Source: an uncultured Syntrophaceae bacterium
GTDB lineage: Bacteria; Desulfobacterota; Syntrophia; Syntrophales; UBA2192
DNA: 46,710 bases
Reading direction: 5' to 3'
NCBI GenBank assembly: GCA_964429555.1
Contig: CAYSDD010000002.1
Location: 1-46,710 of the forward strand
In this document: one piece after another, positions 20,699 to 40,414 of the stretch
How positions within the stretch are numbered: the first letter of the stretch is position 1
Layout of the letters: each line of letters opens with the position of its first letter
Translations under genes and position numbers: made by a program
Notes under the pieces: generated by a model
Told to the model about the DNA's origin: nothing
The model's input: the letters and a program-made list of their open reading frames with translations, nothing else
Databases searched by the model: none

Positions 20699-21907
20699 TC
20701 AGGCATTGTCCAGTTCGACGGCCTCGCTGAGCCTGTCCTCGAAGTCCGGGATCGCCGCGTTGACGCGGACCCACGCGGCGAGCATCGGGACGCCCACCGG
20801 GTCCTCGACGAAATCGCCGATGGCCTTGCGGAGCGAGCCGACGAAGGCTTCGACGGCCTCGATCTCGGCGTGGCGGTCATAGGTCAGCCCGTTGATGAGC
20901 GACAGGGCGTGATATTTCTCGATGGTGACCCTTGCCTCCTGGATGTAGGACGTCAGCATCGTCCGGAAAAACGCCCCGCTCATGACGATCCCGTCCTGGG
21001 TGAGGACCCGGAAGAGGGCCCTCGCGATATCGCCCGCCATGCGCAGCAGGCCCTCGTGGGGCTTCTGCTTTCGGAGCACCTGGTGCTTGTGCTCGTACGT
21101 CTCCGCCAGGTCCGCCTGGCAGATCCGGTTGATGGACGCCCTCTGGTAGACCTCGCTCAGCAGCGACACCTCGAGGCCCCAGGTCGGCGAGATCCGGATC
21201 CCGCGCGCGAGGCTCGAGATCAGGGCGAACTCCCCCGACAGGGCGTAACGGAAGTTGTCCAGGAAGGACAGGAAGGGATTGAACCCCAGGATGCGTCGCA
21301 GCGTCCGGATCAGGGGGGTGTAGAAGAGCCGGGTGACGCGGCCGTAGAGCTGGTCCGTCACGCGCGCGTAGTAGCCCTTGCTGAATTCGAAATCCAGGGC
21401 CGGGTGCGCCACGGGGTAGAGGAGCCGCGCCAGCATTTCCCGGCGGTAGTTGACGATGTCGCAGTCGTGCAGGGCGATGGCGTAGACGTCCCGCTCCGCG
21501 AGGATGGAGCCGAGGGTCATCCACACGGAGCGTCCCTTGCCGGGGTGATCCATGGAGAAGTCGTTCCGCACCAGCTCCCGGTAGAGTTTCTTCATCCGCG
21601 GGCCGTCGTGCCAGACGACGCGCACCGGGCACTTCAGCGCGGACATGAACCCCCTGGCCTTTTCGAACTCGTTCCGTCCGGCCCGGTCCAGGGAAAGAAC
21701 CACCCTGTGGAGATACTCCACGCCTTTCAATTCCTCGATGATCCGGGGCATGGAGGGGGTCTCGAATTCCGAGTAGAGCGCCGGAAGCAGCAGGACGAGT
21801 TTGCGGCGCCGCGCAATCGCCTTGAGCTCCGCCTCGAGCTCCCCGACGGGGCGCTCCCGCAGCTTCTGCAGGGTCGTGATCATGCCGTGCTGCCAGAAAT
21901 CAGTCAT
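20699..21907 (-). CDS. Glycosyltransferase of the glucosyl/mannosyl-3-phosphoglycerate synthase type
   Basis: 402 aa. ALHDCDIVNY (DxD), KGYYARVTDQLYGRVTRLF, LSGEFA. Co-operonic with an MpgP/YedP-type phosphatase. Confidence 0.7.
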   Translation of the reverse strand: MTDFWQHGMITTLQKLRERPVGELEAELKAIARRRKLVLLLPALYSEFETPSMPRIIEELKGVEYLHRVVLSLDRAGRNEFEKARGFMSALKCPVRVVWHDGPRMKKLYRELVRNDFSMDHPGKGRSVWMTLGSILAERDVYAIALHDCDIVNYRREMLARLLYPVAHPALDFEFSKGYYARVTDQLYGRVTRLFYTPLIRTLRRILGFNPFLSFLDNFRYALSGEFALISSLARGIRISPTWGLEVSLLSEVYQRASINRICQADLAETYEHKHQVLRKQKPHEGLLRMAGDIARALFRVLTQDGIVMSGAFFRTMLTSYIQEARVTIEKYHALSLINGLTYDRHAEIEAVEAFVGSLRKAIGDFVEDPVGVPMLAAWVRVNAAIPDFEDRLSEAVELDNA

Positions 21908-23165
21908 CGTGCACCTCCTCGTCCCAGATCTTGATCAGGTAGTCTTTCATCTTCTCGAAGGCCATGGCGTGCGCCTCGAAGAGGCACTCGGCCTCGTCGG
22001 GGTTCCTGTCCCGTACCTCGTTGATGAGGCTCGCCACCCGGGCATTGTAGAGCGGAACCATCGTGTCGAGGACCTTGAAGCGCTGCCGTGCGGTCGCATG
22101 AAAATAGCGGGCGTAGCGGTAAACGATGCGGACCCACGTCTCGAGGGGCAGGTGGAAGTCCTGCGTGCGCTCCACGGCGGCAAGGCCCCGGATCACCTCG
22201 AGATCCTTGGGCTCGACGATCCGCTGCCAGACGCCCGAGAAATTCGCCCAGCCCGTCCGGAAATAGTCGACGAGCCCTTCCTGGTCGATCTCAAAGGGGG
22301 CCGGCTCCTGTTCAACCTCTTCACCCAGGATCGGAACCTCCCGCGACTCCCGGACCTTCTTCCAGGACTCGGCGTTGGTTTCCATGAGCTGGAAGATCGT
22401 GCCCACGACCTGGCGGAACATGGGCCCCAGGTCGGCACCGGGGTCCTTCTCCCCGTGCACCTTGAGCCCCAGCCGGGCCTGGCAGAGCTTGAAGCCTTCC
22501 ACGATGGCCGTCGTGGTCATCCAGACGTCGATGCCGAAACGGGCCACGTCCGTCTCCCAGGCATCCTGGTCGAAGTAATGCTTGGCGAGCCGCCGGGAGA
22601 TCCCGAAGTCTCCTCCGATGGGCTGGCGCACGCGCTGCCCGTAGAGCGCCCGCGTCAGGTTGTAGGCGATCGTGTTGGTGATGGTGCCGTCGAGCTTGTA
22701 GCGACGGTAGTAGGGGGCGACGAAGTCGTATCCGTTGAACACGGGATCGAGCACATTGCGGACCCACTCGGGCTTGATCGAGACGAGGTCGGAGTCGAAA
22801 ACGGCCACCGCCCGGGCCCGGAGGAAATTCGCCACCTCGAAGGCGGCCCGGAGGCCCGACCCCTTTCCCGGCACGCCCCGGTAGATCGTGACGATCTTCT
22901 TGATCTGGTAGGAATGGATCTGCACGAGGTTGGCGATCTCGCGCGTGTCGTCCGTCGATCCCCCGTCGGCGACCAACAGGACGCTCTTGGCCTCGGGGTA
23001 GAAGCGCTCGAGCCCCTCGGCGACGGTCTGGATCACGTGGACGATGGACGAGCCGCTGTAGTAGGAGGGGATGCCGACGACGATGTCGGCATAACGGAGC
23101 TTCTCGATGGTCTTCCGCGCATGATCCCTGAGGGTCGTTGAAAACCGGGGCAACGCTGTCGTCAT
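21900..23165 (-). CDS. GT2-family glycosyltransferase (glucosylglycerate-synthase-like, tentative)
   Basis: ATG 23165 (MTTALPRF) overlaps the upstream stop as ATGA. IVVGIPSYY..., ADGGSTDDT, AVFDSDL (DxD). Confidence 0.7.
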   Translation of the reverse strand: MTTALPRFSTTLRDHARKTIEKLRYADIVVGIPSYYSGSSIVHVIQTVAEGLERFYPEAKSVLLVADGGSTDDTREIANLVQIHSYQIKKIVTIYRGVPGKGSGLRAAFEVANFLRARAVAVFDSDLVSIKPEWVRNVLDPVFNGYDFVAPYYRRYKLDGTITNTIAYNLTRALYGQRVRQPIGGDFGISRRLAKHYFDQDAWETDVARFGIDVWMTTTAIVEGFKLCQARLGLKVHGEKDPGADLGPMFRQVVGTIFQLMETNAESWKKVRESREVPILGEEVEQEPAPFEIDQEGLVDYFRTGWANFSGVWQRIVEPKDLEVIRGLAAVERTQDFHLPLETWVRIVYRYARYFHATARQRFKVLDTMVPLYNARVASLINEVRDRNPDEAECLFEAHAMAFEKMKDYLIKIWDEEVHDD

Positions 23166-24013
23166 GAATCGCTCCTGTCCCTGACGGCTTTTTCTCCCTC
23201 GTCCCCGAACCGCGCGAGAAGACCCCGGACGGCCTCGTTCCACCCTCGGCTTCCCGGGTGGGGCGCCCGGACGAGATTCGGCAGCTTGACATCCTCGTAC
23301 CGCCCGTCGGGATGGGGAATCAGCACGGGGATATCCACGGCGGCAAGCATGGGGACATCGTTGGGCCGGTCGCCGATGCCGACGGTCAGCAGTGCCCGAG
23401 CCGTGTTTTCCCGGAAGATCGCCGTGAGCCGCCTCACGGCCTCCCCCTTGTCCTGCCCGATCCCGATCAGGTGATGAAAGCGCCCGCCCCGGGTGATCGT
23501 CAGACCCGCCGCGGCGGCTTCCTCTCGCAGGGCCTCCAGCTTCGTGTCGTCGTCCAGCAGGAACGGCTCCGAGAACTCCCGCTGCTTCGCAAGGCGTGCC
23601 TGCTCGGGGGCGAGGCCCGTGAGATTCACGAGTTCCTCGACGCTCAGGTCCGCCGCGCCGCGGATGGCGAAGCGGGGTTTCCGATCCTCGACGAAGCGGC
23701 GGATCTCGGCGTAGGGTCTGCCCATCAGGATGAGACGATGCGCACCCCGCTCGACCGCGCCGGGAATTCGAAAGTCCCGATAAGCCGCGGGGAAGAAAAT
23801 CCCGCCGCCGTTCTCGACGATGAAGGGCTCCCGGATGCCCATGTCATCCTGCAGTCTGATGACCTCCGCCCGGGTCTTGCTCGTGACGAAGACCAGGGGC
23901 ACGGACAGCTCCCGGATCCGCTTCAGGGCCGGACGGGCGCCCTCGCAGGAGTACCCGTCGTGATCCAGCAGGCTCCCGTCGAGGTCCGTGAGGATCAGGA
24001 GCAACCGATTCAT
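23162..24013 (-). CDS. HAD-IIB phosphatase, mannosyl/glucosyl-3-phosphoglycerate phosphatase (MpgP/YedP) family
   Basis: 283 aa. LILTDLDGSLL, VFVTSKTRAE, GDRPNDVPML. Confidence 0.8.
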   Translation of the reverse strand: MNRLLLILTDLDGSLLDHDGYSCEGARPALKRIRELSVPLVFVTSKTRAEVIRLQDDMGIREPFIVENGGGIFFPAAYRDFRIPGAVERGAHRLILMGRPYAEIRRFVEDRKPRFAIRGAADLSVEELVNLTGLAPEQARLAKQREFSEPFLLDDDTKLEALREEAAAAGLTITRGGRFHHLIGIGQDKGEAVRRLTAIFRENTARALLTVGIGDRPNDVPMLAAVDIPVLIPHPDGRYEDVKLPNLVRAPHPGSRGWNEAVRGLLARFGDEGEKAVRDRSDS

Positions 24014-24014
24014 C

Positions 24015-25247
24015 TCACACCATGACGGTATGTTCCGTTTTTCCGCCGACCAGGGCGTACATCAGGGTGAGATATTCCCTGAGGTGCCGGGTCAGGAGGT
24101 AGTGCTCGCGGACCAGCTCGCGCCCGGTCTCCCCCATCCTGCGGCCCTGTTCCCGGTGGTGCAGGAGATACCGGATGCGGTTGGCCGCCCCCTCGGGGGT
24201 CATGACGAGAAACCCCGTGTGGTAGTCGACGACCTGCAGGCGGATGCCCCCGGCATCGCCCCCGATGACGGGTTTTCCCTTCCAGAGCCCCTCGGTGACG
24301 GTCAGGCCGAAGCCCTCGCGGGTCGATTTCTGGATCACGATGTCGGCGATCCGCTGCAGGGCGTTGACCGTGCGGTGCGCAGCCGGGGGCAGCAGCTCCA
24401 CGTGGATGTCGGGGTCTCCATCGGCGGCCTCCAGCACGGCGTCGAGCACCTCCTTGCCCTCCGGGTCGTCCGTGGCCCCGCCTCCCGCAAGGACCAGCTG
24501 GACGGGGGTCATCTTCTTGACCATCCGGTAGGCCTGGATCACGCCCACGGGGTCCTTGAAGCGGTCGAACCGCGAGATCTGGACGAGCACGGGGACGTCG
24601 GGGTCGAGCTCGAACCGCCGGCGCACGGTGTCGAGCTCGCGCGCGCCGAGATCGATGTTCTTCTCACTCAGAGGGTCGATGCTCGGCGCGATGAGGTACT
24701 GCGGGTGCGACAGCAGCTGCGCAAACTGGCACATGGAGAAAATGCTCGCGTCGTATCGTTCCACGAAGGGTTTGAGACCTTTCCAGACCTCCCGGAAGGG
24801 GTGGCTGACATCGATGTGGCATCGCCAGATCCAGCGACCCCTGCGACGGCCGCACAGCTCCAGCAGGGGGGCCGGCTGAGGGTCGTGGACAACGACGATG
24901 TCCGCCCCCTCCAGGGCGTCCCGGAGCCGGTTGAAATTGTCGCGGTTCACGTCCCGGTAGAGCTCCCAGTCCCGTTTCTTGATCAGGACGGGATGGCCCT
25001 GCAGCCCGTTGTGAAAGGCCTTGGTCACGGCGAAAAACTCGCTGGTGCCCGTGATGACCTCCCAGCGGGCGTCCAGTCCGAGATCGTTCATCAGCGGCAC
25101 CATCCAGGCGAGGATCTCCGCCACCCCGCCGCCCTCGGCGGTGGAGTTGACGTGCACGACGTTCAACCCCTTGAGCCGCTCGCCCAGCCTCCGCAGCTGC
25201 CCGATCACGGGAACGCCGACGATCGGTTCGTAACGATCGATGTTCAT
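24015..25247 (-). CDS. treT: Trehalose glycosyltransferring synthase TreT (GT4)
   Basis: Internal ATG (MNIDRYEP). VHVNSTAEGGGVAEIL, WRCHIDVS, PSIDPLSEKN, QISRFDRFKDP, DDPEG, REGFGLTVTEGLWKGKPVIG match archaeal TreT as recalled. Confidence 0.85.
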   Translation of the reverse strand: MNIDRYEPIVGVPVIGQLRRLGERLKGLNVVHVNSTAEGGGVAEILAWMVPLMNDLGLDARWEVITGTSEFFAVTKAFHNGLQGHPVLIKKRDWELYRDVNRDNFNRLRDALEGADIVVVHDPQPAPLLELCGRRRGRWIWRCHIDVSHPFREVWKGLKPFVERYDASIFSMCQFAQLLSHPQYLIAPSIDPLSEKNIDLGARELDTVRRRFELDPDVPVLVQISRFDRFKDPVGVIQAYRMVKKMTPVQLVLAGGGATDDPEGKEVLDAVLEAADGDPDIHVELLPPAAHRTVNALQRIADIVIQKSTREGFGLTVTEGLWKGKPVIGGDAGGIRLQVVDYHTGFLVMTPEGAANRIRYLLHHREQGRRMGETGRELVREHYLLTRHLREYLTLMYALVGGKTEHTVMV

Positions 25248-25252
25248 GCCCC

Positions 25253-25921
25253 TCACTCCCTTGCCCGGACTCTTTCGTCCCGGAGCGGTGCAAGCACCCT
25301 CACGAGTTCCTCCCGAAGCTCCCGGAGCGTGTAGAAGTAGAAGTCGATCCGCCGCAGGGCCGCCACGCACGGGGCCATCCGCTCCCCGAACCCGCCGATC
25401 CAGTTCGAAAAATCATCCACCCCGGCGGGCGGTCGGCGCTGGGCCTCGACAAAGTGAAAGTAGATGCTGCCGTTGGACATGCGCCCGATGGCGTCCGGGA
25501 GATCGCGCAGGGCGTCAACCCGTTCCCCCGAATCGAAGACGAGGGTCGTCGCCTCCATGAAGTAGAACTCGTGGCCGGGCCTCGCCCAGGGGATCATGGT
25601 GACCTCGCTCAGGCGCTCGTCGATGACCTCGAGGACGACCTCCCGCAGCGCTTCCATCGAAAGACAGGCGTAGGGGTCGACGGCCCCGAGCCGCTCGGCC
25701 AGGACCTTGTCCGAAAGCCGGCGGCTCGCCCAGACGGCGAAGTCGTTGCGGTGATCCGGGTACTCGAACGTGGGCGACAGGGGCGTCTCGCAGAAGTGGT
25801 GGTACAGCACGTCGGTGCTGCAGACGGCGATGCGGTCCCGCAGTTCCCGCAGGTTGAACGCCGGCGGCAGCCCGCTCATGCGGATCAGCAGCGAGCAGTC
25901 CATGATCTCGAAGGGATTCAT
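25253..25921 (-). CDS. Conserved hypothetical protein (possibly DUF5752-like)
   Basis: 222 aa. Good SD (AGGAGG, 8 nt, ATG). Non-artefactual composition. Embedded between otsB and treT. No catalytic motif recognised. Confidence 0.6.
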   Translation of the reverse strand: MNPFEIMDCSLLIRMSGLPPAFNLRELRDRIAVCSTDVLYHHFCETPLSPTFEYPDHRNDFAVWASRRLSDKVLAERLGAVDPYACLSMEALREVVLEVIDERLSEVTMIPWARPGHEFYFMEATTLVFDSGERVDALRDLPDAIGRMSNGSIYFHFVEAQRRPPAGVDDFSNWIGGFGERMAPCVAALRRIDFYFYTLRELREELVRVLAPLRDERVRARE

Positions 25922-25933
25922 CGCGTTGACCTC

Positions 25934-26692
25934 CTATTCTTTCACGTCCATGCGGGCCAGGCGGCGGACCTCCCGCACCAGGCTTTCCGGGCCGTCGACC
26001 AGCCGGGTGCCGGGGATCATCGGCTCCGTTCCCACGAAGAGCGCGACCCCTCCCTGCCGGATCACCCACTCCATGGCGACGGCATCGTTTTCGTCGTCGC
26101 CGGCGTAGACCAGCGAGCCCGGCACGGGCACATGGCGCAGCATCTCGCAGAGGACGACGGACCCGAAGAGCTTGTCGATCTCGGGGAGGAGCTGGATTTC
26201 GAAGACCTCCGGGCCCCGCAGCAGACGGATCCCGGTGGTGCGGGCCAGCGCCTCGAGAAACGAGAGCACCCTCGGGCGCTCCTCGGGGGCGATCCGCCGG
26301 ACGTGCACGGCAACCGACCAGTGCTTGTCTTCCACATCGGCGCCCGGAATCTCCCGGAGCCTGTCGAGCTCCGGCATGACGGCGCCGCGGGCATGCCGGA
26401 GGCGCAGTGTCTTGCCGTCCGCCGTTCTCCGTTCCCCGCCGGGCAGGAGCCATTCGGCCCCGCTGCCGCCCCCGAGGTAGAGCCCGCGGATGTCGACCCT
26501 CGCCGCCAGGTCGTCCAGCAGCCGGCTCGAGAGCACGGCCACAGCCTGCCGCGGCCATTCGACGAGCTCCGACAGCACCGTTCTTGCCTCGGGATGAAGC
26601 GCCGCGGTTCTTCGATCGGGCACCAGCGGGGACAGAGTGCCGTCGAAATCGAAGATCCAGACCCTGTCCGGGGCCGCTTCCCTCGAGGGCAC
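25934..26692 (-). CDS. otsB: Trehalose-6-phosphate phosphatase
   Basis: 252 aa. FDFDGTLSP, GDDENDAVAM. GTG start overlaps the otsA TAG by 1 nt. Confidence 0.85.
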   Translation of the reverse strand: MPSREAAPDRVWIFDFDGTLSPLVPDRRTAALHPEARTVLSELVEWPRQAVAVLSSRLLDDLAARVDIRGLYLGGGSGAEWLLPGGERRTADGKTLRLRHARGAVMPELDRLREIPGADVEDKHWSVAVHVRRIAPEERPRVLSFLEALARTTGIRLLRGPEVFEIQLLPEIDKLFGSVVLCEMLRHVPVPGSLVYAGDDENDAVAMEWVIRQGGVALFVGTEPMIPGTRLVDGPESLVREVRRLARMDVKE

Positions 26693-28179
26693 TAGGCCAC
26701 CTCCTTGACGGGCCGGATGCCTTCGAGCTCCTCGAAGATTTTCGCCCCCCAGTCGAAGACCGTGTTCTTCTGCACCTGCGACCGCATCCTCCTCATCCGC
26801 TTCCGGCGCTCCTTCTCCGGCATGGCACAGGCCTCGACCATGACGTCGGCCAGCTCGTCGATGTCGTAGGGGTTCACGAGGAGGGCGTCGGGGAGTTCCC
26901 GGGCCGCCCCCGTGTACTGGGAGAGCAGCAGGACCCCGTCGCCGTCGGTCCGGGCGGCGATGAACTCCTTGGCCACGAGGTTCATCCCGTCGTGCAGGGA
27001 GGTGACCATGAGGACATCGGCCATCCGGTACGAGGCGAGGACGGCATGATAATCGTGGTGGGCGCGGAGGAACCGGATGGGCACCCAGTCCTCGGTCTGA
27101 TGGCGCCAGTTGATCTCATCGACCAGGTCGTCGAGTTCCTCGTTGATGTCCCGGTACTCCTCGATGTGGGTCCGGCTGGGTGCGGCAAGCTGGAGCAGGG
27201 TCACCCTGCCGCGAAGTTCCGGGTTCTGGCTGAGCATGAGATCGAAACCCCTCAGCCGTTCCGGGATTCCCTTGGTGTAGTCGATCCGATCGGCCCCGAC
27301 AAGCACCTTCGTCTCCAGAACCCCCTCTCCGAGTTCCTTGATGAAGCTCTGCCGTCGTTCCTCGACCGTCTGCGAACCGGCGTCCTTGCCGATCTGATGG
27401 AAGTCGACGCTGATGGGGAACGCCCGGACCGCGGTGGGCCGGCCGCCCCGGAAAATCCGGAAGCGTTCGTAATCCACCCTCGCCTCGATCCCCCTGTCCA
27501 CCGTGTCCATGAAGTTGTTGCAGTGATACTGGATGTGAAACCCGATCATGTCGTTCCCCAGAAGCCCGTCAAGGAGTTCCTCCCCCCAGGGAAAGATCCT
27601 GAAGGCCTCGCGGTTGGGCCAGGGGATATGCCAGAAGTGGACGATCAGCAGATCGGGCCGGGCCTCTCTGAGCATCCGGGGAAGCAGCGCGAGGTGGTAG
27701 TCCTGGACGAAGACGATGGCGGGCCCCCCTTCCGCTTCGTCGAGTACCGTGTCGCAGAAGCGCCGGTTGACGTCCCGGTAGATTTCCCAGTCCTTCCGGG
27801 AGAAGCGGGGCCGGGTGTACACGATGTGGCACAGCGGCCAGAGGGCCTGGTTGGAAATCCCGTAGTAATAGCCGTTTTCCTCTTTCCGGGTCAGCCACAC
27901 CCGCCGAAGCGTGTAGCGCGGGTTTTCGGGGGGTATCGCGACGCGCCCCTTCGCATCGGTGACGAGGCGGTCGGCGGTGCCGGAGCCGTGAGCGACCCAG
28001 GTGCCGCCCGTTGCGCGGACGATCGGCTCCAGGGCGGCCACCATCCCGCTGGCCGGACGGACCACCCGGATACCGCCCACGTCGCGCTCATGGGTCACGG
28101 GTTCACGGTTCGACGCGATGATGACCTTTGCATTTCTCGTGATGCGGGAAACGAGTCCCCCGAGGTATCGGGCATCCAT
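26692..28179 (-). CDS. otsA: Alpha,alpha-trehalose-phosphate synthase (GT20)
   Basis: 495 aa. IIASNREPV, GMVAALEP, FWHIPWP, LLQLAAPSRTHIEEY, NLVAKEF. Confidence 0.95.
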   Translation of the reverse strand: MDARYLGGLVSRITRNAKVIIASNREPVTHERDVGGIRVVRPASGMVAALEPIVRATGGTWVAHGSGTADRLVTDAKGRVAIPPENPRYTLRRVWLTRKEENGYYYGISNQALWPLCHIVYTRPRFSRKDWEIYRDVNRRFCDTVLDEAEGGPAIVFVQDYHLALLPRMLREARPDLLIVHFWHIPWPNREAFRIFPWGEELLDGLLGNDMIGFHIQYHCNNFMDTVDRGIEARVDYERFRIFRGGRPTAVRAFPISVDFHQIGKDAGSQTVEERRQSFIKELGEGVLETKVLVGADRIDYTKGIPERLRGFDLMLSQNPELRGRVTLLQLAAPSRTHIEEYRDINEELDDLVDEINWRHQTEDWVPIRFLRAHHDYHAVLASYRMADVLMVTSLHDGMNLVAKEFIAARTDGDGVLLLSQYTGAARELPDALLVNPYDIDELADVMVEACAMPEKERRKRMRRMRSQVQKNTVFDWGAKIFEELEGIRPVKEVA

Positions 28180-28712: not shown

Positions 28713-29300
28713 TCAGAGGTTGATCACCCGGCCCGACGTCATGAGGGCCGTGACGATCTCGTGCATGTTGGAGACCTTGCCGACCCGGAGCTTCTCCTTG
28801 ATGCCGAAGAAGGCCAGGCAGGTGCCGCAGGAGAGGATCTCGACTCCCTCCCTGTCCAGGAGCGCCAGGCTCTCGAGGACGTCGGAACCCTCGGTGGTGA
28901 GAAAGACCCCTCCGTTGATGAAGATCACCTTGTCCGGTCTCGGCTGGGAATCCCAGAGCGTGTTGAGAAAGGCCTTCATGAGGATCGCGCCCAATTCGTC
29001 GGAGCCCTTGCCGAAGACGTCGGTCGTGATGCAGACCACGGTCGGTCCCTCCGCGGCTCCGGCCTGCGCCGCGAGGCTGCAGCCCGCCTGCTTCGTGATG
29101 GTGAGGGCATAGGCGCCCTCCTTCTCCGCCACCGTGACCTCGCAGCCCCGGCTGGCCGCAAACCGCTTCACGTTCTCCCGGCTCTCGGGGCTGTCGACGA
29201 GGACCGTCACGGTCCCTTCGGGAATGGCCTCCAGGGCTTTCTTGGTGTTGATCACGGGCTGCGGGCAGGCAAGCCCCCGGCAATCGATTTCCCTCGTCAT
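28713..29300 (-). CDS. yedF: Sulfurtransferase-like selenium metabolism protein YedF (TusA-like N-domain plus DsrE-like C-domain)
   Basis: MTREIDCRGLACPQPV... preceded by AAAGGAGGA with a 9-nt spacer. C-terminal LSCGTCL...VSNM typical of YedF. Confidence 0.85.
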   Translation of the reverse strand: MTREIDCRGLACPQPVINTKKALEAIPEGTVTVLVDSPESRENVKRFAASRGCEVTVAEKEGAYALTITKQAGCSLAAQAGAAEGPTVVCITTDVFGKGSDELGAILMKAFLNTLWDSQPRPDKVIFINGGVFLTTEGSDVLESLALLDREGVEILSCGTCLAFFGIKEKLRVGKVSNMHEIVTALMTSGRVINL

Positions 29301-29436
29301 GGCGATGATCCTCCTTTCCCCGTCATGGACGGTCGCATTTTCCATAATCCCCTTTCATAAATCAAATGGATTCGTGGCATGTCAGCCTGCTGCGGCCCTC
29401 CCGCGGCAGGCGGGCCCACTTATAACGATTATCTAT

Positions 29437-29465
29437 TTGACAGATAGCCATTGTTTATGTATGGA
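29437..29465 (+). promoter_or_regulatory. Candidate promoter for the activase operon, overlapping an ATC-N9-GAT dyad
   Basis: TTGACA (29437-29442), 17-nt spacer, TATGGA (29460-29465). The dyad ATCTATTTGACAGAT (29431-29445) fits the LysR T-N11-A pattern. Confidence 0.45.
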
Positions 29466-29528
29466 ACCGGATCGAGTTCGGGCGGCGCGGGCCCGGGAAT
29501 GCTCCCGCCTCGGGAGGGTGAACAGGCG

Positions 29529-30275
29529 ATGAAGGGGATCGGGCTGGACATCGGTTCACGGACCATCAAGCTCGTCGTCTGCGAAAACGGCAGCATGACG
29601 ATGAAGCGCAAAGAGGTGAACACCTACGACCCCCTCACCCTGTGCCGGGAGATGCTGAATGGCTTTGAGGCAGAGCGTATCATCGCGACGGGCTACGGGC
29701 GCCATCTGCTCAAAGGATATCTCCAGTGCGAAACGATCAGTGAGATCAAGGCCTTCGCACTGGGAGCCCTTGCCCTCTGCGGCTCCTGCCGGACGGTCCT
29801 GGACATCGGCGGCCAGGACACGAAGGCCATCTCCCTGGACGAAAACGGGAGAATCCTCAAATTCCAGATGAACGACAAGTGCGCCGCCGGGACCGGGCGC
29901 TTCCTCGAGGTCATGGCCACGGCGCTCGGGCTTTCCCTGGAGGATTTCATGGCGGCGGCGGCCGCCGCCGAAGAACCCGAGTCGGTCAGCAGCATGTGCG
30001 CGGTCTTCGCCGAGTCGGAGGTGATCTCCATGATCGCCCGCGGTGCGCCGCGGCCGGGGATCGCACGGGGAATCCACCAATCCGTCGCCCGGCGGGCCGT
30101 GTCCCTGCTCGAGAAGGTATCGATTCGCGAGGACATCCTGTTTGCCGGCGGCGTCGCGCTGAACCCCTGCATGCGCGCGCAGATCGAGGAGCATCTCGGC
30201 CGGCGCGTCATGGTGCCCGGTGACCCGCAGATCGTGGGCGCTCTGGGGTGCGCGCTGATGGCCTCGGAGGCATGA
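29529..30275 (+). CDS. BadF/BadG/BcrA/BcrD-type ATPase: (R)-2-hydroxyacyl-CoA dehydratase-type activase
   Basis: MKGIGLDIGSRTIKLVV, LDIGGQDTKAI, NDKCAAGTGRFLE, MCAVFAESEVIS, FAGGVALNP. Confidence 0.9.
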   Translation: MKGIGLDIGSRTIKLVVCENGSMTMKRKEVNTYDPLTLCREMLNGFEAERIIATGYGRHLLKGYLQCETISEIKAFALGALALCGSCRTVLDIGGQDTKAISLDENGRILKFQMNDKCAAGTGRFLEVMATALGLSLEDFMAAAAAAEEPESVSSMCAVFAESEVISMIARGAPRPGIARGIHQSVARRAVSLLEKVSIREDILFAGGVALNPCMRAQIEEHLGRRVMVPGDPQIVGALGCALMASEA

Positions 30276-30281
30276 AGCAGC

Positions 30282-31490
30282 ATGGCTAATCAGCACTCGG
30301 CACACGAGAAACAGCGGATCCCGTCGGGCCCCGCGAGTTCGCAGGCGGAACCCCTCCTGTGTGACGGCTTCCACGCCGACCCCGCCGGACGCATCCTCAG
30401 CTGCATCCTGTCGAAGCGGGAACAGGGTTCACCCGTCATCGGCCTGTACTGCGGGTACGCCCCTCTGGAGCTGGTCCGGGCCATGGGCGCCGTGCCCGCC
30501 TTCCTCTGCGCCGCCTCGGGCCGGACGATCCCCGCCGCCGAGGCGGTCCTTCCCGCCAATCTCTGCCCGCTGATCAAGTCGAGTTTCGGGTTCATCCGGA
30601 CGAAATCGTGCCCCCTCTACGAGCTTGCCGACGCCGTCATCGGCGAGACGACCTGCGACGGGAAGAAAAAGATGTTCGAGCTGATCGCCCCGCTCAAGCC
30701 GACCCACGTCATGGATCTTCCCTACAGGCCCGATGAGGAAGGGACCCTCGCACGCTGGACGCAGATGGTCCGCAAGCTCAAGAGATTCCTCGAGGAAACC
30801 TTCGCTCGTGCGATCCCGGAGGAACGGATCGAGGCCGAGATCCGGGAAACGAACGCGAAATGCCGGCTCATCGACCGCGTCTTCGATTACGCCGCCCTGG
30901 CGCGGCCGGCCATCCACTGGAGCGAACTGCTCGATGTGATCGGGTTCGAGCCCCTCACCGGCTGCGAGGAATTCCGCCGGTTCGTGGAGCCCGCGCTGGA
31001 ACGGCTCGAGGCCCGCGCCGTTCGCGGCATCGGTTTCGGGCGGCCCGGCGCGCCGCGCGTTCTGGTCAGCGGCTGCCCGATCGGGGGGGAAGCGAAAAAG
31101 GTCCTGCGCCTCATCGAAGAGGCGGGGGGCGTCGTCGTCGCCATGGAGGGATGCAGCGGCATGAAGGGATATTCCATCCGAATCGACGAGGGGACCGGCG
31201 ACCCGCTCGGGGCCGTGGCCGCGGCAACCCTGAAGATCCCCTGCTCCTGCATGACGCCCAACCGGGGGCGGTTCGACGCCCTCGACGAGATGATCGCCCG
31301 GTACCGGCCGGATGCCGTCATCGACGTCATTCTTCAGGCCTGCCACACCTACAACATCGAGTCCCACCGGATCGGGCGGCACATCCGCGACCGGCACGGG
31401 CTGCCCTTTCTGAAAGTCGAGACGGACTATTCCGAATCCGACATCGAGCCGCTGCGCACCCGCATCGAGGCCCTGCTCGAGAGCTGCTGA
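30282..31490 (+). CDS. 2-hydroxyacyl-CoA dehydratase / BcrB-superfamily protein, single-subunit (double-cubane-cluster reductase-like)
   Basis: 402 aa. GLYCGYAPLELVRAMGAVP, CPLIKSSFG, ETTCDGKKKMFE, SGCPIGG, ACHTYN. Only one large subunit is paired with the activase. Confidence 0.8.
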   Translation: MANQHSAHEKQRIPSGPASSQAEPLLCDGFHADPAGRILSCILSKREQGSPVIGLYCGYAPLELVRAMGAVPAFLCAASGRTIPAAEAVLPANLCPLIKSSFGFIRTKSCPLYELADAVIGETTCDGKKKMFELIAPLKPTHVMDLPYRPDEEGTLARWTQMVRKLKRFLEETFARAIPEERIEAEIRETNAKCRLIDRVFDYAALARPAIHWSELLDVIGFEPLTGCEEFRRFVEPALERLEARAVRGIGFGRPGAPRVLVSGCPIGGEAKKVLRLIEEAGGVVVAMEGCSGMKGYSIRIDEGTGDPLGAVAAATLKIPCSCMTPNRGRFDALDEMIARYRPDAVIDVILQACHTYNIESHRIGRHIRDRHGLPFLKVETDYSESDIEPLRTRIEALLESC

Positions 31491-31511: not shown

Positions 31512-31811
31512 TCAGTCGAGGGCCGTCACTTCGCCCGGAGGGAATCCCCCCTTCTCGAGCCTCTCCCGGATCGTTTCGATGCTCGTCCTTTTGTCGTCGA
31601 AGGTGACCGTCGCCTCTCGGGTGAAGGCGTTGACGTCATGCTTCACCACGCCCGGGGTCGTCCGGAGGATGAAGTTGACCTGCGGCACCGTGGAGGGGCA
31701 GTCGCAGGCCTCGATCTTGAGCCGGATGGTCTTTTCGGCCGCAGAGGCGTCCGGCGCCGCGGCGAGGGCCGTGAGTGCGAGCAGGACGGTGAGAACGTGC
31801 AGCGTCTTCAT
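31512..31811 (-). CDS. Secreted HMA (heavy-metal-associated)-like domain protein with CxC in place of CxxC
   Basis: 99 aa. Signal peptide MKTLHVLTVLLALTALAAAPDASA. IRLKIEACDCPSTVPQV...GVVKHDV...ATVTFD. ATGA overlap with the upstream gene. Confidence 0.65.
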   Translation of the reverse strand: MKTLHVLTVLLALTALAAAPDASAAEKTIRLKIEACDCPSTVPQVNFILRTTPGVVKHDVNAFTREATVTFDDKRTSIETIRERLEKGGFPPGEVTALD

Positions 31812-32173
31812 CGCGGACCTCCCGTTGATTCCGATTGCTCCGCAGAACAGTCGCGGATGAAACGAGCCAGTTCCTCTTCGTTCAACCCCGCCCCGCGCCT
31901 GCCGTCCAGGCGCCGGGCGACGGCACCCTTGCGAAAGAACAGCACGGTCGGAAAGATCTCGATCGCCCAGGGGTCCGACAGCGTGTCCCCGTCGTCCTGC
32001 ACGAGAGCGAACCGCCCCGGGTCCCGTGCGTGATTCTCGAACACGGGCAGGAACCTGCGGCTGTAGGGGCACCAGGAGGCGTAGAACAGGGCGAACAGCT
32101 CGTCTCGGGAGCGCAGGAGCGCCTCGAGATCCGGCGCGCTCGTAACCCGGGGGATTTGGGATGTTTCTTCCAT
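31808..32173 (-). CDS. Thioredoxin-fold protein with monothiol WCPYS motif
   Basis: SD AAAGGAG 8 nt before ATG 32173. LFALFYASWCPYSRRFLPVF...IFPTVLFF. Confidence 0.7.
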   Translation of the reverse strand: MEETSQIPRVTSAPDLEALLRSRDELFALFYASWCPYSRRFLPVFENHARDPGRFALVQDDGDTLSDPWAIEIFPTVLFFRKGAVARRLDGRRGAGLNEEELARFIRDCSAEQSESTGGPR

Positions 32174-32236
32174 CACGCGTTCTCCTTTCCTGGGCTGTCG
32201 AGCCCGTTCGTCCGGGGCCCGCGACGGGGGTCGGCA

Positions 32237-33457
32237 TCACCCCTGAGCGATTCCCAGCACGTCCCGGCAGAGGATCTGCAGGTCACGAAGCTCGGCCCGC
32301 TGCCGGGGCTCGAGTCGCTTGGGTACCCCGGCGGCCCCGAGGGACCGGTTGATTCGCCGGGCCGCGGCGAAGAGGTGCGCGAGGGCCTCCGGGATGTTGA
32401 AATCCCGATGCATCGCCTCGCGGAACCGCACCCCGAGTTCGGTCGTGGCCCCCGCAACCCGGGCTTCTCCTTCCCCGTCCGCCCCGCAGCGCCCGGCAAG
32501 GCCGGAGAGCCGATCGAGGGCCGCGGCCGCCTCCCCGAGCCGCCGCTCCGTCAAGTCCACGGGTCGACGGTAATGCGTCGAGAGGAGGAACAGCCGGATC
32601 GCCCCCGGCCGATGATGCCGGAGCAGGTCGCGGATCCGTCCGCCCCGGTCCTCGGATTTTGAAAGCTTCCTCCCCTTGAGCGTCACCAGTTCGTGATGGA
32701 GCCAGTACCGGGCGAGGTCCGTCCCGTCGAGGCTGCGCGAAAGGGCCCTCTCGTTTTCATGATGGGGAAAGATCAGGTCCCGGCCTCCGCCGTGGATATC
32801 GAACAGGCTGCCCAGGTGCCCGCGGCTCATGGCAACGCATTCGATGTGCCACCCCGGCCGGCCTCTCCCCCAGGGGCTCTCCCAGGCGACCGCATCCCCT
32901 TCGGCCCTCTTCCAGAGGGCGAAGTCCCGCCCGTCCTCCTTGGGGCCGCCCGGTCCCGACCGCAGCCCCGCATCGACGCCCGCGGCGTCCGCGAGGCGAC
33001 CGTAGTCGCCCCGCAGGCGGACCCGGAAGTAGACGCCGTCCTCGCGCACGTAGGCCTGCCCGTCGTCGATGAGCCTCGCGATCGCCTCGAGGATCGGCCC
33101 GATCCGTTCCGTCACGCGCGGCTCGAAATCGGGTGCGAGGACCCCGAGGGCGGCCATGTCCTCCCGGTACGAGCGGATGTAGCGGTCGGCGAGATCCCCG
33201 GCTGCGATCCGCTCGGTTCCCGCCCGTGCGAGGATCTTGTCGTCGAGATCCGTGAAGTTCCGCACGTACCGGACGGCATACCCCTCGAACCGCAGGAAGC
33301 GGACGACCACATCGAAAAAGACCGCCGACCGGGCGTGGCCGACGTGGGCGTGGTCATAGACCGTGGGCCCGCAGACGTAGATTCCGATATGCCCCGGCCG
33401 GATCGGGACAAACGGCTCGAGCGACCCCGTCAGGGTGTTCCAGAGACGCAGCGGCAC
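32237..33457 (-). CDS. cysS: Cysteine--tRNA ligase family protein lacking the C-terminal anticodon-binding module (406 aa)
   Basis: [17 protein letters not shown] (HIGH), [23 protein letters not shown] (Zn ligands), KLSKS. Ends about 50 aa after [12 protein letters not shown], where E. coli CysRS continues for roughly 60 more residues. GTG start 4 nt after the selB stop, with GAGGGAG as SD. Confidence 0.85.
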
Positions 33458-33461
33458 CGCC

Positions 33462-35390
33462 CTACTCCCTCAGCACGCGCTCGTTGCCGCGGCGCTCGGT
33501 GAACCCGATCGCGTCGAGATGCTCGAGAAGGGGCAGGCCGATCGTGCGGCCGCACCCGAGGACCGGGTTGCAGTCCGCGGGCGTGAAGCGACCCTGTTTT
33601 GCAATCCAGGCGCGGATGCGGTCCTTGGCCGTTTCCAGGCCCCGCCGCGAAATGTAGCGCTCGCCGCCCAGCATCACGACGTGTCTCTTCGAGACCAGGT
33701 GTCCGAGGAGGCGCCTGACCTTCGGCTTCTCGTCCGGGAGACCCAGGGCCGCGCTGATCACGGCGACCGTGACGGTGACGGTGCCCGCGCGCTCGACCGC
33801 CTCGAGCACGCGCGCGAGCAGGGGATCCCGAAGGGATCCCAATCTCCGGTGCATCTCCGAAAGAGCATACCCTCCGTTGACGGACGCCAGGACCCCCTCG
33901 CGGACCAGCTCCCCGAGCAGGAAATCCAGGGCCCCGGGCTCCAGGTTCCAGGGGATCGATGCGGCGATGTGCGACTTGCTGATCTGATCGCGCAGGGTGT
34001 CCTCGGCAAGCGTCCGTTCGACGGCCTCCGCGATCTTGCGCTTGGCCTCCTGCGCGGTTTCCGCCGAAAGGAAGGAGCCGGCGTCGAGGGGAACGAGGAA
34101 CCCCGCCTCGCTCTGCCTTTTCAGCACGTTCTCGAAGACGGCGCGATCCAGTCCCGTGGATCGGCTCAGCCCCTCCGCGGTCAGTACGGCGGCGGGCTGC
34201 GCGGCGGCGGCGGCCTTCACGATCCGCCCCGGATCGCCCGTTTGCAGCCCGGTCAAGTAGGCAAGGGTCCTCTCCGCACGCGCCCGCCGGAACTTGACCC
34301 TCGTTGTCTCGAGGATCGTGCCGCCGCCGAGCACGGAAGGGCTGTTCATGGGCGTCATGATGCATCGATCCCGGGGAGCCGCACCGAGCGGTGCCGTGAG
34401 CCGGAATTGCACCAATCCCCTCTGCCCGGGGACGAGTTCCTCCCGGCCCATGATCACCGCCAGAGCCGACCCGACTGCACTGCCGACGTGCACCTTGACC
34501 CTCTGGCCGCTGCGGAGGGGCTGCCCGGAAAGGCGGCACAGCTCCAGCTCGACATTCAGGTAGGCGGCCGCCTCGAGGCACCCCGGCTCCGAGAGGACCA
34601 TTCCCCGGGCGATTTCCCCCGCCCCGACCCCCTGCAGGTTGATCCCGACCCGAAGGCCGGCGGAGGCGGACTCCACGGCGTTGTGATGGGACTCCAGAGA
34701 CCGCACGCGGACCGTCTTCCCGCCCGGGACGATCTCGAGCCGGTCTCCCGCCCGCACGGTGCCCGACAGGATCGTCCCGCTCACCACGGTGCCCAGGCCC
34801 TGGAAGATTCGAACCTGGTCGACGAACATCCGGAAGGGTTTCGAGGAGGCCTTGCTCCGGATCCCCGCCGCGGCCATCCCGTCCAGGACCGCCAGGACTT
34901 CATCCCGGCCCCGCCCGTCGATGCCGGAAAACGGGATGACCGGCCCGTTTTCGAGGAACGACCCCGCCGCGAGTTCCTCGATGTCCAGGGCGGCCATTTC
35001 CAGGGTCTCCCGGTCGACCAGGTCGGCCTTTGTCAGCACGGCGAAGCCGGCCGTGACGCCGAAGAAGCGCAGGATCTCCAGGTGCTCCCGCGTCTGGGGC
35101 ATGACCCCGTCGTCGGCCGCCACCGCCAGGATCGCCGCATCGACGGCGCTCAGCCCCCGGATGGTGTTCTTCATGAAATCCCGGTGGCCGGGCACGTCGA
35201 CCAGGCTGACCCGCAGGCCCGACGGCAGCACGAGCGGGGCGATGCCGAACTCGATGGAGAGGCCCCGGGCCTTTTCGACCTGCATCCGGTCCGTGTCGAC
35301 GCCCGTCAGGGCGGCGACCAGCGTCGTCTTGCCGTGGTCGACATGCCCGGCGATGCCGACCGTGTAATGTCTCTGCATGATTGCGCCCAT
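33462..35390 (-). CDS. selB: Selenocysteine-specific elongation factor SelB family
   Basis: 642 aa. GHVDHGKTTL, DVPGHRDF, TKADL. C-terminal winged-helix region ...LLEHLDAIGFTERRGNERVL matches the E. coli SelB C-terminus. The domain II pocket motif reads FVDQVRIF instead of AIDRAF. Confidence 0.85.
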   Translation of the reverse strand: MGAIMQRHYTVGIAGHVDHGKTTLVAALTGVDTDRMQVEKARGLSIEFGIAPLVLPSGLRVSLVDVPGHRDFMKNTIRGLSAVDAAILAVAADDGVMPQTREHLEILRFFGVTAGFAVLTKADLVDRETLEMAALDIEELAAGSFLENGPVIPFSGIDGRGRDEVLAVLDGMAAAGIRSKASSKPFRMFVDQVRIFQGLGTVVSGTILSGTVRAGDRLEIVPGGKTVRVRSLESHHNAVESASAGLRVGINLQGVGAGEIARGMVLSEPGCLEAAAYLNVELELCRLSGQPLRSGQRVKVHVGSAVGSALAVIMGREELVPGQRGLVQFRLTAPLGAAPRDRCIMTPMNSPSVLGGGTILETTRVKFRRARAERTLAYLTGLQTGDPGRIVKAAAAAQPAAVLTAEGLSRSTGLDRAVFENVLKRQSEAGFLVPLDAGSFLSAETAQEAKRKIAEAVERTLAEDTLRDQISKSHIAASIPWNLEPGALDFLLGELVREGVLASVNGGYALSEMHRRLGSLRDPLLARVLEAVERAGTVTVTVAVISAALGLPDEKPKVRRLLGHLVSKRHVVMLGGERYISRRGLETAKDRIRAWIAKQGRFTPADCNPVLGCGRTIGLPLLEHLDAIGFTERRGNERVLRE

Positions 35391-35452: not shown

Positions 35453-35544
35453 TGGAAGGGGCAAGGGGAATCGAACCTCCTCCTCGTTGCTGAGACGAGG
35501 CCAACGGATTTGAAGTCCGCGGGGTGCCCAGCACCATTGCCCCT
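35453..35544 (-). tRNA. selC: tRNASec-like (selC-type) tRNA, anticodon UCA, 8-bp acceptor, 4-bp bulged T stem, long variable arm, discriminator U73, encoded CCA
   Basis: Hand fold of the minus strand: AGGGGCAA UG GGUG-CUGGG-CACC CC GCGGA-CUUCAAA-UCCGU UGG CCUCGU-CUCAGCA-ACGAGG A GG(A)GG-UUCGAUU-CCCC UUGCCCCU U CCA. Anticodon at 35511-35513. Confidence 0.8.
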
Positions 35545-37398: not shown

Positions 37399-38334
37399 TT
37401 ACCTCTTTGCGAGCGGTTCCGGGCGGTAGGCCCGGATGAAATCGAGAAAGATCCGGTGGTGCGCCATCAGGTCGAAGTGCCTGCGGTGAATGACGTAAAA
37501 GAAGCGCTCGACGGGGCAGCCCTCGATGGGCAGCGCGGCAAGGATCCCCGAGGCGATCTCCCTCCGGACGGCGTAGATGGAAATCACGGAAAGGCCGACG
37601 CCGGCGATGACGGCCTCCTTGACCGCCTCGGAGCTCCCCATCTCGGCAACGACCCGAAACCGGGACAGGTCCGTTTTGCCGGCCTCGGCAAGGCACCGCT
37701 CGAAGGCGTCGCGGGTGCCCGAGCCCCGCTCGCGGATCACGAAGGGCTCCTTCTCGAGCTCGCGGACACGGACGGTTTTCCTCTTCGCCCAGGGGTGCGC
37801 CGCGGGAACGGCCAGCACCATCCGGTCCCGCCAGAGCGGTTCGGCCGCCAGCTTCGCGCCGGCGGGCTCCTTGCCGATGAAGCCGATCTCGGCGCCGTTC
37901 TCCAGGACCGTCTCGATGACCTCGCTGCTGTCGGCCGCCCGCACGGCGGTCCGGATCGCGGGGAATTTCTCCCGAAACGCAGCGATCGCCGGGGGCAGGA
38001 TGTAGGTGGCCGGGATCGTGCTGGCGGCGATCCGGATGTCCCCCTCCTCGGCGGCGCGCGCCCGCATCACCCGCTCCATGGCCTCCTCGCGCAGCTTCAG
38101 GATCCGCCGGGCGTAGTCGTACACCACGCGCCCCTCGGGCGTCAGCGTGAAGGCGCGGCTCGCGCGGTTGACCACCTTCGCCCCCAGGGCGTCCTCGAGG
38201 TTGCGGATGTGCTTCGTGAGCGACGGCTGGGAGAGGTACATCCTCCTGGCCGCCCGGCTGAAGCTGCGTTCCTCGACGAGGTGCACCAGGGCCTCGAGCT
38301 GCAGCATGTTGACGTTTTTCATCTCGGCCTGCAT
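37399..38334 (-). CDS. LysR-family transcriptional regulator (selenium-cluster associated)
   Basis: 311 aa. HTH LQLEALVHLVEERSFSRAARRMYLSQPSLTKHIRNLE. Divergent from yedE. Its stop is 4 nt before the thrC ATG. Confidence 0.85.
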   Translation of the reverse strand: MQAEMKNVNMLQLEALVHLVEERSFSRAARRMYLSQPSLTKHIRNLEDALGAKVVNRASRAFTLTPEGRVVYDYARRILKLREEAMERVMRARAAEEGDIRIAASTIPATYILPPAIAAFREKFPAIRTAVRAADSSEVIETVLENGAEIGFIGKEPAGAKLAAEPLWRDRMVLAVPAAHPWAKRKTVRVRELEKEPFVIRERGSGTRDAFERCLAEAGKTDLSRFRVVAEMGSSEAVKEAVIAGVGLSVISIYAVRREIASGILAALPIEGCPVERFFYVIHRRHFDLMAHHRIFLDFIRAYRPEPLAKR

Positions 38335-38467
38335 GGCCTGTCCCTACCATGACCCTTTTCGATAATCAAGAAGCATTTATGAATTATTGGAATTGGCGTT
38401 ATTCAGAAAAGAAGGGTAATAAAAAAGCGCTTTCCTCATCCCAGACCCTGTGAAGGAGGACCCCGGT

Positions 38468-39541: not shown

Positions 39542-39590
39542 TGCAAGGACCCGGAGCCAAGAACGACCATTTCGCTGAAAGGAGACCGTC

Positions 39591-39803: not shown

Positions 39804-39864
39804 TATAAGGAAACACCAACCGGGGCCTTCCCTGCGGGAAAGGCTCCGATTTGTTTAGGAAGGA

Positions 39865-40410: not shown

Positions 40411-40414
40411 GGCC

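Follow-up and report, generated by a model that had tools for sequence, protein, structure and literature searches.

Organization of the locus

We analyzed a 46.7-kb stretch of DNA with a G+C content of about 67% (the window) from an uncultured Syntrophaceae bacterium, an organism present in activated-sludge and digester metagenomes. Our study centers on positions 28713-31490, which hold three genes: yedF on the minus strand and, facing it, a two-gene operon on the plus strand that codes for an activase and a double-cubane cluster protein (DCCP). An earlier interpretation by a model, the sequence-only reading, had described this pair as an activase and one subunit of the HGD-D family separated by a 6-nt gap, sharing a 228-bp region with yedF and lying inside a selenium island; the coordinates confirm both the gap and the shared region. 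The activase gene (29529-30275, plus strand, 248 aa; TIGR00241 at 220 bits against a cutoff of 125, PF01869 at 164 bits) belongs to an open reading frame (ORF) that opens at 29451, and its likely start is the ATG at 29529 because its relatives are 248 aa long. After 6 nt (30276-30281) it is followed by the DCCP gene (30282-31490, plus strand, 402 aa; PF06050 at 331 bits, NF040772 at 426.1 bits against a cutoff of 350), which has a GGAGG motif 11 nt 5' of its ATG.

The divergent gene is the long form of yedF (28713-29300, minus strand), which scores 235 bits with TIGR03527 selenium_YedF (cutoff 110), 79 bits with PF01206 and 27 bits with PF02635. Its ORF has 210 codons and extends to 29345; the start is probably the ATG at 29300, giving 195 aa, because the orthologue at locus L082, to which the window protein is 84% identical over 195 aa, is called at this length. 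The protein combines an N-terminal TusA domain (residues 18-85) containing the ACPQP motif and a C-terminal DsrE-like domain (139-209) containing SCGTC, both motifs being invariant in the YedF alignment. With these revised starts, the intergenic region between yedF and the activase gene spans 29301-29528 (228 bp). The proposed location inside a selenium island is borne out by the neighboring selenium-family genes at 32.2-42.4 kb, which comprise a selC-like tRNA, selB, LysR_Sec_metab, yedE, tusA, a gene for a Se_S_carrier protein and a selD that contains selenocysteine (Sec); the tRNA, selB and cysS genes of this region were re-identified as a cysteine-recoding set.

Identity of the double-cubane protein and its activase

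The match of the window DCCP to the equivalog hidden Markov model (HMM) NF040772, the NCBIfam model of double-cubane-cluster-containing anaerobic reductases, passes the cutoff and spans model positions 13-371 of 372, and its closest solved structure is the DCCP of Carboxydothermus hydrogenoformans (DCCP-Ch; 6ENO/7YYL), with an E-value of 5.6e-73 and 36% identity. The cysteines of the window protein follow the pattern C57-X18-C76-X18-C95-X29-C125-X165-C291-X29-C321-X32-C354, and C110, C265 and C323 are conserved as well; on the 6ENO chain the corresponding spacing is X18-X18-X29-X164-X31-X32, compared with X18-X18-X29-X165-X29-X32 in the window. The 7-Cys criterion for these proteins combines six cluster ligands with one nearby cysteine. 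Given that the published 7-Cys regular expression is off by 1-2 residues even on 6ENO, we used residue-by-residue alignment. The comparison of cysteine ligands that the sequence-only reading had proposed gave a counterpart for every cysteine of the crystallized DCCP-Ch: all nine cysteines aligned with 6ENO are kept in the window protein (C57, 76, 95, 110, 125, 291, 321, 323 and 354), and none of the cluster-binding cysteines has been lost. Eight of the nine are kept at all 81 loci with a complete gene, the gaps being due to contig ends and frameshifted genes. C76 is most likely the counterpart of the non-ligand 'Cys94' of the 2020 review.

The AlphaFold2 model of the protein (predicted local distance difference test score, pLDDT, 86; predicted template modeling score, pTM, 0.86) shows the two-Rossmann-domain DCCP fold. 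In the Foldseek search, the top five matches were all DCCP chains, with template modeling (TM) scores of 0.80-0.82 (0.82 for 6ENO), followed by BzdN and HadC at 0.72-0.78 and about 20% identity. A second HGD-D gene is not present in the window, where tblastn with 20 paralogues matches 30282-31490 only, and no CoA-transferase, CoA-ligase or fermentation genes were found by Pfam scans of the other large ORFs judged to be coding by third-position G+C. These results agree with the double-cubane-type arrangement lacking a second dehydratase subunit and a CoA-transferase that had been described from the sequence. Taken together, the equivalog HMM, the completeness of the cysteine set, the fold, and the lack of both a partner subunit and a CoA-transferase support the identification of the pair as an activase plus a single-subunit double-cubane-type protein, whose cluster content and activity are predicted.

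It could be argued that the protein is a component of a conventional 2-hydroxyacyl-CoA dehydratase or class I benzoyl-CoA reductase, since it belongs to the Pfam family HGD-D (PF06050) and its homologues were once annotated as 'R-phenyllactate dehydratase beta subunit'. However, the models of these enzymes fall 10-20 times under their own cutoffs on the window protein (HadC 39.5 bits with a cutoff of 700, BzdN 43 with 454, BcrB 25 with 487, and BcrC 23 with 421), the double-cubane cysteine set is complete, the best structure matches are DCCPs, the HGD-D gene stands alone with no CoA enzymes in the window, and fermentation and aromatic-degradation genes are missing among the conserved neighbors. 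Due to these observations, we consider the classical dehydratase or benzoyl-CoA reductase reading excluded, with a probability close to nil.

The activase is a predicted ASKHA-fold archerase, equivalent to DCCP-R, the reductase partner of DCCP-Ch, and its cluster cysteines are C118 (NDKCAAGTG) and C157 (SSMCAVFAESE). Its PDB matches are 4EHT (2.9e-48), 1HUX (3.2e-48) and the DCCP-R chain 7YYL_E (1e-46); the similarity to DCCP-R thus equals that to HadI and HgdC, and both [4Fe-4S] cysteines are kept.

Two further candidates were considered and rejected. C265, in an SGCP motif, is not a signature of a selenium-linked clade, as the position holds Thr in DCCP-Ch and Cys in most short DCCPs whatever their context. 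A Sec-containing DCCP at loci L038 and L023 was likewise discarded because three-frame translation shows frameshifts and no TGA at a cysteine position; the DCCP genes of L038 (10001-11135) and L023 (10001-11100) carry +1 frameshifts, which are probably assembly errors or the mark of pseudogenes.

Recurrence of selenium genes at DCCP loci

Our comparison covered 80 DCCP loci, one genome per species, with 39-62% identity and flanks of up to 10 kb per side. A targeted tblastn found a long YedF at 16 of them (14 full-length and 2 partial), and YedE/TusA blocks or SelD at others. In the 1.26 Mb of flanking sequence, 0.6 YedF would be expected at a density of one yedF per 2 Mb and 1.3 at twice that density, so that the Poisson probability of 14 or more is about 1e-14, and about 1e-10 with the density doubled. 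The all-against-all clustering of every ORF within 6 kb of the 80 loci ranked the neighbor families as follows: activase (49 loci), ABC ATPase (25), long YedF (16, the window counted), ABC permease and histidine kinase (14 each), the TIGR01977 EF2568-type cysteine desulfurase (11), which is Sec-lyase-like and reaches 411 bits with the SclA selenocysteine-lyase model, then the SsuA-family ABC substrate-binding protein, DUF3343/Se_S_carrier, LysR_Sec_metab (the window counted) and an MtaA-like methyltransferase (9 each), and SaoE (6). Long YedF is consequently the third commonest neighbor of DCCP, behind the activase and the ABC ATPase, and LysR_Sec_metab adjoins the DCCP gene at L010, L011, L014 and L026. 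No CoA-transferase, acyl-CoA dehydrogenase or aromatic-degradation families appeared among these neighbor clusters. The sequence-only reading had named orthologues lying in aromatic or amino-acid fermentation clusters with no selenium linkage as the finding that would speak against it, and this is not the picture obtained.

In the neighbor-joining (NJ) tree, the window DCCP belongs to a 27-locus clade. A full-length YedF is present at nine of these loci (Poisson p about 2e-12), and some selenium gene is present at 14 of the 27, compared with 9 of the 53 loci elsewhere. The linkage occurs in varied gene orders in Thermodesulfobacteriota, Spirochaetota, Bacillota, Eggerthellaceae and a gammaproteobacterium. 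The order is DCCP-yedF-DUF3343, at times followed by the desulfurase gene (csd), in Smithella and Syntrophaceae, activase-DCCP-yedF-DUF3343 in a spirochaete, DCCP-activase-yedF in Syntrophomonadaceae, and activase-DCCP-ABC importer-yedF in Humidesulfovibrio, this order standing in one string at L037; in Eggerthellaceae, DCCP is followed at some distance by yedF-csd, and in a gammaproteobacterium activase-DCCP faces csd-yedF. All genes are co-directional and separated by short gaps in the string selD-DCCP-csd-yedF-DUF3343 of contig L128, and contig L089 has DCCP, a 184-aa ORF, yedF, csd, DUF3343 and selD in this order. The closest relative with context, L082 (78% identity), keeps the divergent arrangement of yedF and activase-DCCP together with the neighboring HMA-like gene, and its outer flank carries formate dehydrogenase instead of the recoding genes. 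The recurrence of the link across many unrelated genomes, with the genes in varying order, supports an association between DCCP and yedF or other selenium genes. For this grouping we propose the term selenium-linked DCCP module, meaning a DCCP gene within a few kb of YedF, EF2568-type Csd, DUF3343, LysR_Sec_metab, YedE or SelD.

The nearest DCCP relatives carry tandem arrays of two or three DCCP paralogues that have the full cysteine set and share one activase (L002, which is Syntrophus buswellii, L083, L084/L085 and the P0007 contig). The paralogues are about 380-390 aa long, and the three-gene arrays also include a 425-aa class. The arrays of L002 and L083 stand directly behind a NitT/TauT-type ABC importer and are followed by DUF3343, and that of the P0007 contig has an upstream transporter of another type and a long YedF downstream; the window, with one DCCP gene, lacks an importer. 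The tandem arrays suggest several substrates or heteromeric DCCPs.

Control region and expression

The alignment of the 228-bp spacer with that of L082 shows that the two have diverged except in two blocks. One of these is a near-invariant block of about 41 nt (29425-29465) that contains the palindrome ATCTATTTGACAGAT, a TTGACA hexamer and a minus-strand promoter-like site at 29457-29428. The palindrome, at 29431-29445, has the form ATC-N9-GAT, which is of the LysR-type T-N11-A kind. The pattern occurs once in the window, and at least one match was obtained in 33 of 100 shuffles, so it is not significant alone. It is kept only in the window, in L086 and, with one mismatch, in L082, and it was not found upstream of DCCP or yedF at distant loci. 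An operator shared across the family was rejected on these grounds, and the conserved block fits a putative operator common to yedF and the reductase genes. Co-regulation of yedF and the reductase operon from this block would probably depend on the selenium-type LysR regulator of the island.

With respect to expression, a perfect 171-nt metatranscriptome contig spans the activase/DCCP junction (30146-30316), and other metatranscriptomes hold DCCP fragments. This is weak evidence for the expression and co-transcription of the two genes; the metatranscriptome contigs are sparse, with a depth of about 1-3 and yedF uncovered, and have no bearing on regulation.

Comparison with known systems

The characterized system closest to the window pair is DCCP/DCCP-R of C. 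hydrogenoformans (CHY_0487/0488; 6ENO, 7YYL), which likewise consists of a catalytic HGD-D-type protein and an ASKHA activase encoded by two genes; the cluster cysteines and the neighboring non-ligand cysteine are all conserved, as are both [4Fe-4S] cysteines of the activase. Differences from DCCP-Ch are a start that lies 19 residues later, with residue 61 of the 6ENO chain facing query residue 42 in the alignment, Cys265 in place of Thr, and an activase gene that comes first. Because of this late start, and because the first 33 residues are modeled without secondary structure, the window DCCP may lack the N-terminal extension, which the 2020 review ties to narrow substrate channels and describes as missing in YjiM. 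The pair also differs from CHY_0487 as reported in being embedded in selenium genes. With E. coli YjiM/YjiL, a 'class II' DCCP system in the same review, it shares the short form of about 380-400 aa, the full cysteine motif, the adjacent activase and a host genome with SelD; its identity to the enterobacterial homologue (L052) is about 42%, and the two lie in different clades of the NJ tree. The 10-kb flanks of the DCCP loci L052, L072 and L076, which are enterobacterial or from Aeromonas, yielded no selenium genes.

The SAO locus-associated DCCP (Haft 2022) belongs to the same NF040772 family and shows the same genome-level dependence on SelD. The window differs from that locus in that tblastn with SaoE, substrate-binding proteins and ABC components found no SaoE, SaoX-type binding protein or ABC importer in it. 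The partner there is YedF, with yedE, tusA, Se_S_carrier and selD at a greater distance; the HMA-like neighbor scores 26 bits with the UxxU_metal_bind model, whose cutoff is 95. With the selenium-trafficking set defined by Zhang 2008 and Lin 2015, the window has YedF, YedE, a TusA-like protein, a Se_S_carrier-domain protein and LysR_Sec_metab in common, with the differences that this set was defined without a reductase and that the window lacks the EF2568-type desulfurase. HadBC/HadI, HgdAB/HgdC and BzdNOPQ share the superfamily fold (TM 0.72-0.78) and archerase-type electron injection, unlike the window pair in needing two different HGD-D subunits and a CoA-ester substrate.

It is important to note that the link reported here is less new than the earlier note implied, because the association of DCCP with SelD is already present in the Haft 2022 preprint, in which 955 of 970 high-scoring DCCPs came from SelD-containing genomes and the processing of selenium-containing compounds was proposed. 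YedF is mentioned 0 times in that preprint, and Lin 2015 lists activase and HgdB-like genes only as uncommented rows of a STRING table. No paper combining 'double-cubane' and 'YedF' was found in the literature searched. What our study adds is a quantified, multi-phylum operonic link of DCCP to YedF, csd, DUF3343 and selD. The window itself is one more instance, ordinary for its clade, and since the link is partly in the literature, its novelty is limited.

Proposed function and alternative explanations

By homology with the characterized systems, the pair would be a two-component, ATP-driven reductase working at very low potential. A dimer of the activase would accept an electron from ferredoxin or flavodoxin onto its bridging [4Fe-4S] cluster, and the binding and hydrolysis of ATP would push this electron on to the partnerless DCCP, in which six cysteines hold the receiving [8Fe-9S] cluster. 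The conserved context suggests that such a reductase would serve the mobilization of selenium, or of sulfur and selenium. The two open Fe positions of the double cubane could be the site where a selenium-bearing substrate is reduced, the likeliest substrate being zero-valent selenium or selenium bound to carbon, cyanide or sulfur, which thiols convert poorly to selenide. The reduced selenium would then be taken up by the YedF cysteines (CPQP in the TusA domain and CGTC in the DsrE-like domain) and would reach, with TusA and Se_S_carrier proteins taking part, SelD, which itself contains Sec and makes selenophosphate.

We assign a probability of about 0.4 to this reading, in which the DCCP reduces a thiol-resistant selenium substrate and the selenium passes via YedF to SelD. 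The proposed chemistry, in which a reduced selenium species would feed YedF and SelD, is plausible. The Se(0)/HSe- couple has a strongly negative potential, so a low-potential reductant is chemically reasonable for elemental or polymeric selenium, and nitrogenase, a functional analogue, turns over selenocyanate. In view of the importers and paralogue arrays of relatives, the substrate may be an imported organoselenium or organosulfur compound. A wider proposition, which we put forward only tentatively and regard as somewhat doubtful, is that the short DCCPs beside yedF, csd, DUF3343 and selD form the catalytic core of a hitherto unrecognized ATP-driven release of selenide from thiol-resistant selenium; candidate sources would be elemental or polymeric selenium, selenocyanate and organoselenium compounds, with the selenide going into selenophosphate synthesis in strict anaerobes.

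Several points weigh against the selenium-reductase reading. Thiols suffice to reduce selenite and perselenides, and the need for an ATP-driven reductant is not obvious. The known substrates of DCCPs are all artificial (acetylene, hydrazine and azide). The association with yedF proposed by the sequence-only reading stands when seen from the DCCP loci and is weak in reverse: in a set of 80 metagenomic loci picked for long YedF, DCCP is present at only six, and at four of the 30 that have 8 kb of flank or more, compared with DUF3343 at 39 of the 80, the desulfurase at 29 and SelD at 21. Because YedF mostly occurs without DCCP, YedF appears as part of the selenium-trafficking core and DCCP as an accessory added in a minority of cases. 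The paralogue arrays behind importers suggest an imported organic compound rather than bulk elemental selenium. Some YedF-linked DCCP operons (L006, L007, L009, L010 and L128) have no activase gene within 10 kb, and the sole characterized DCCP could not be reduced without its ATPase. Furthermore, sulfur and selenium chemistry are inseparable by sequence; the genes around a 67%-identity homologue (P0018) point to the uptake of sulfate and the synthesis of homocysteine, its neighbors being a sulfate ABC transporter, a PALP enzyme, a pyridoxal phosphate (PLP) enzyme of Cys/Met metabolism and ThiS. Finally, the genomic context would suit a flow of selenium in either direction.

This last point opens the way to the main alternative, which we consider unlikely: YedF, the Sec-lyase-like desulfurase and DUF3343, together with SelD, would deliver selenium to the DCCP cluster, a selenide would replace the bridging mu2-sulfide to give [8Fe-8S-Se], and the enzyme would then reduce an unrelated small molecule. 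The near-complete confinement of DCCPs to SelD genomes holds across clades of differing context (SAO, ABC-importer, MtaA-like and enterobacterial yjiLM), for which reason a shared cofactor need explains their restriction most economically. The asymmetry described above, with YedF frequent near DCCP and DCCP rare near YedF, fits a client placed beside a general selenium-delivery module, and the operons without an activase suit a maturation cluster as well as a catalytic one. On the other hand, recombinant DCCP-Ch produced in E. coli showed activity and has an [8Fe-9S] cluster in its solved structure, and selD in the DCCP gene string of L128 and L089 is equally compatible with either direction. 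To our knowledge, no selenium-bridged Fe-S cofactor exists in biology, which also counts against this alternative. Haft 2022 had raised selenium in the cluster as a 'formal possibility'. A reading in terms of sulfur only seems quite improbable to us. According to it, DCCP would reduce polysulfide, persulfide, thiosulfate-derived sulfane sulfur or organosulfur, and YedF would be a sulfur carrier of the TusA/DsrE type; the composition of YedF from TusA and DsrE domains, which are sulfur-relay folds, points in this direction, as do the homology of YedE to the thiosulfate transporter TsuA, the neighbors of P0018, the rhodanese that adjoins YedF on the P0007 contig, and the lack of a selenium-specific DUF3343 branch in Lin 2015. 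Against this, selenium_YedF, seleno_YedE and LysR_Sec_metab each exceed their equivalog cutoffs, selD stands in the same gene string at L023 as it does in L128 and L089, and across genomes DCCPs track SelD and not sulfur metabolism. Less probable again is a substrate unconnected with the transfer of selenium or sulfur, in which case the adjacency would reflect shared regulation or the hitch-hiking of anaerobic low-potential functions in an island. About 70% of the DCCP loci have no selenium gene in their flanks, and the island of the window is a mosaic that also holds thrC, mnmA and recoding genes, as such an explanation would have it; yet the enrichment of YedF is far above chance, the linkage has been assembled anew, with other gene orders and orientations, in five or more phyla, a pattern that speaks for selection to keep the genes close, and co-directional strings with gaps of 0-40 nt (L006, L013 and L026) look operon-like.

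Among ATP-driven nitrogenase-like low-potential reductases, DCCPs are the third class known, and their discoverers state that the physiological function of these proteins is unknown. The link to selenium genes thus bears on two questions, namely the physiological role of DCCPs and the way in which anaerobes supply SelD with selenide from poorly available selenium. If the selenium-reductase reading is true, it would give the first physiological function for [8Fe-9S] double-cubane enzymes, and the module would join the cysteine-recoding genes of the island as a selenium-scarcity toolkit. The reading with a selenium-bridged cluster would be equally novel, and either outcome, a selenium-mobilizing reductase or a selenium-containing Fe-S cofactor, would be informative.

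Selenium island and other features of the window

Convergent with the DCCP gene lies a gene for a 99-aa HMA/MerP-like secreted protein (31512-31811, minus strand), which falls short of the cutoffs of PF00403 (23 bits) and TIGR02052 MerP (50 bits) and has an EACDCP motif, with C-x-C where CxxC is usual. L081 and L082 have a 101-aa gene at the same position, with 83% identity, and more distant loci lack it; judging by this conservation, the gene is possibly part of the module. Between it and the cysS gene there is a gene for a thioredoxin-fold protein (31808-32176, minus strand; PF00085 at 34 bits) with a WCPYS (CxxS) motif. The island continues with a short cysS (32237-33457, minus strand), coding for a 406-aa cysteinyl-tRNA synthetase without the anticodon-binding domain, a selB-type gene (33462-35390, minus strand) and a tRNA-Sec-like tRNA (35453-35544, minus strand) with an 8-bp acceptor stem, A1:U72, discriminator U73 and anticodon UCA. 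According to their sequence features, these genes are a selC*/selB*/cysS* cysteine-recoding set and not an ordinary selC/selB pair; neither a canonical G73 selC nor selA is present in the window. Such an arrangement is able to insert Cys at UGA (Mukai et al., NAR 2017, PMC5389517), and in the window it lies only about 0.7 kb from the DCCP gene.

Further along, the LysR_Sec_metab regulator (37399-38334, minus strand; NF040786 at 290 bits with a cutoff of 250) is a candidate controller of the divergent promoter. It is followed on the plus strand by yedE (38450-39541; TIGR04112 at 498 bits), a tusA-like gene of 70 aa (39591-39803; PF01206), a gene for a 181-aa Se_S_carrier (DUF3343) domain protein (39865-40410; PF11823), a gene for a 301-aa Carb_kinase/YjeF_C-like protein (40415-41320; PF01256), and the Sec-containing selD (41317-42369), whose in-frame TGA at 41368-41370 is codon 18 and lies in the active-site loop GAG-U-ACK. 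ORF finders give only the C-terminal 256 codons of selD (41599-42369). The conserved four-gene block from yedE to the Carb_kinase-like gene (38450-41320) recurs in several distant genomes, with occurrences at L002, L075, L088, L090, L095, L098 and L102, and often stands just upstream of long yedF. The non-selenium genes of the mosaic include thrC, which is also within the island, and mnmA. Between selD and mnmA, at 42382-43473 on the minus strand, there are tandem paralogous genes for secreted DUF4124 proteins of 160 and 180 aa with charged, repeat-like C-termini.

The left 28 kb of the window carries housekeeping and compatible-solute genes, among them queA, tgt, secDF, glgA, mgtE, phaC, a P-type ATPase gene, treT and otsAB. 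The compatible-solute cluster (21900-28179, minus strand) consists of genes for a mannosylglycerate-synthase-like glycosyltransferase, a HAD phosphatase, a TreT-type trehalose synthase and a DUF5752 protein together with otsB and otsA; it adjoins yedF, has no relation to the selenium genes and forms the left border of the island. About 160 nt upstream of the P-type cation ATPase gene (17597-20362, minus strand), at 20522-20574 on the minus strand, there is an nhaA-I riboswitch (Rfam RF03057, 44 bits).

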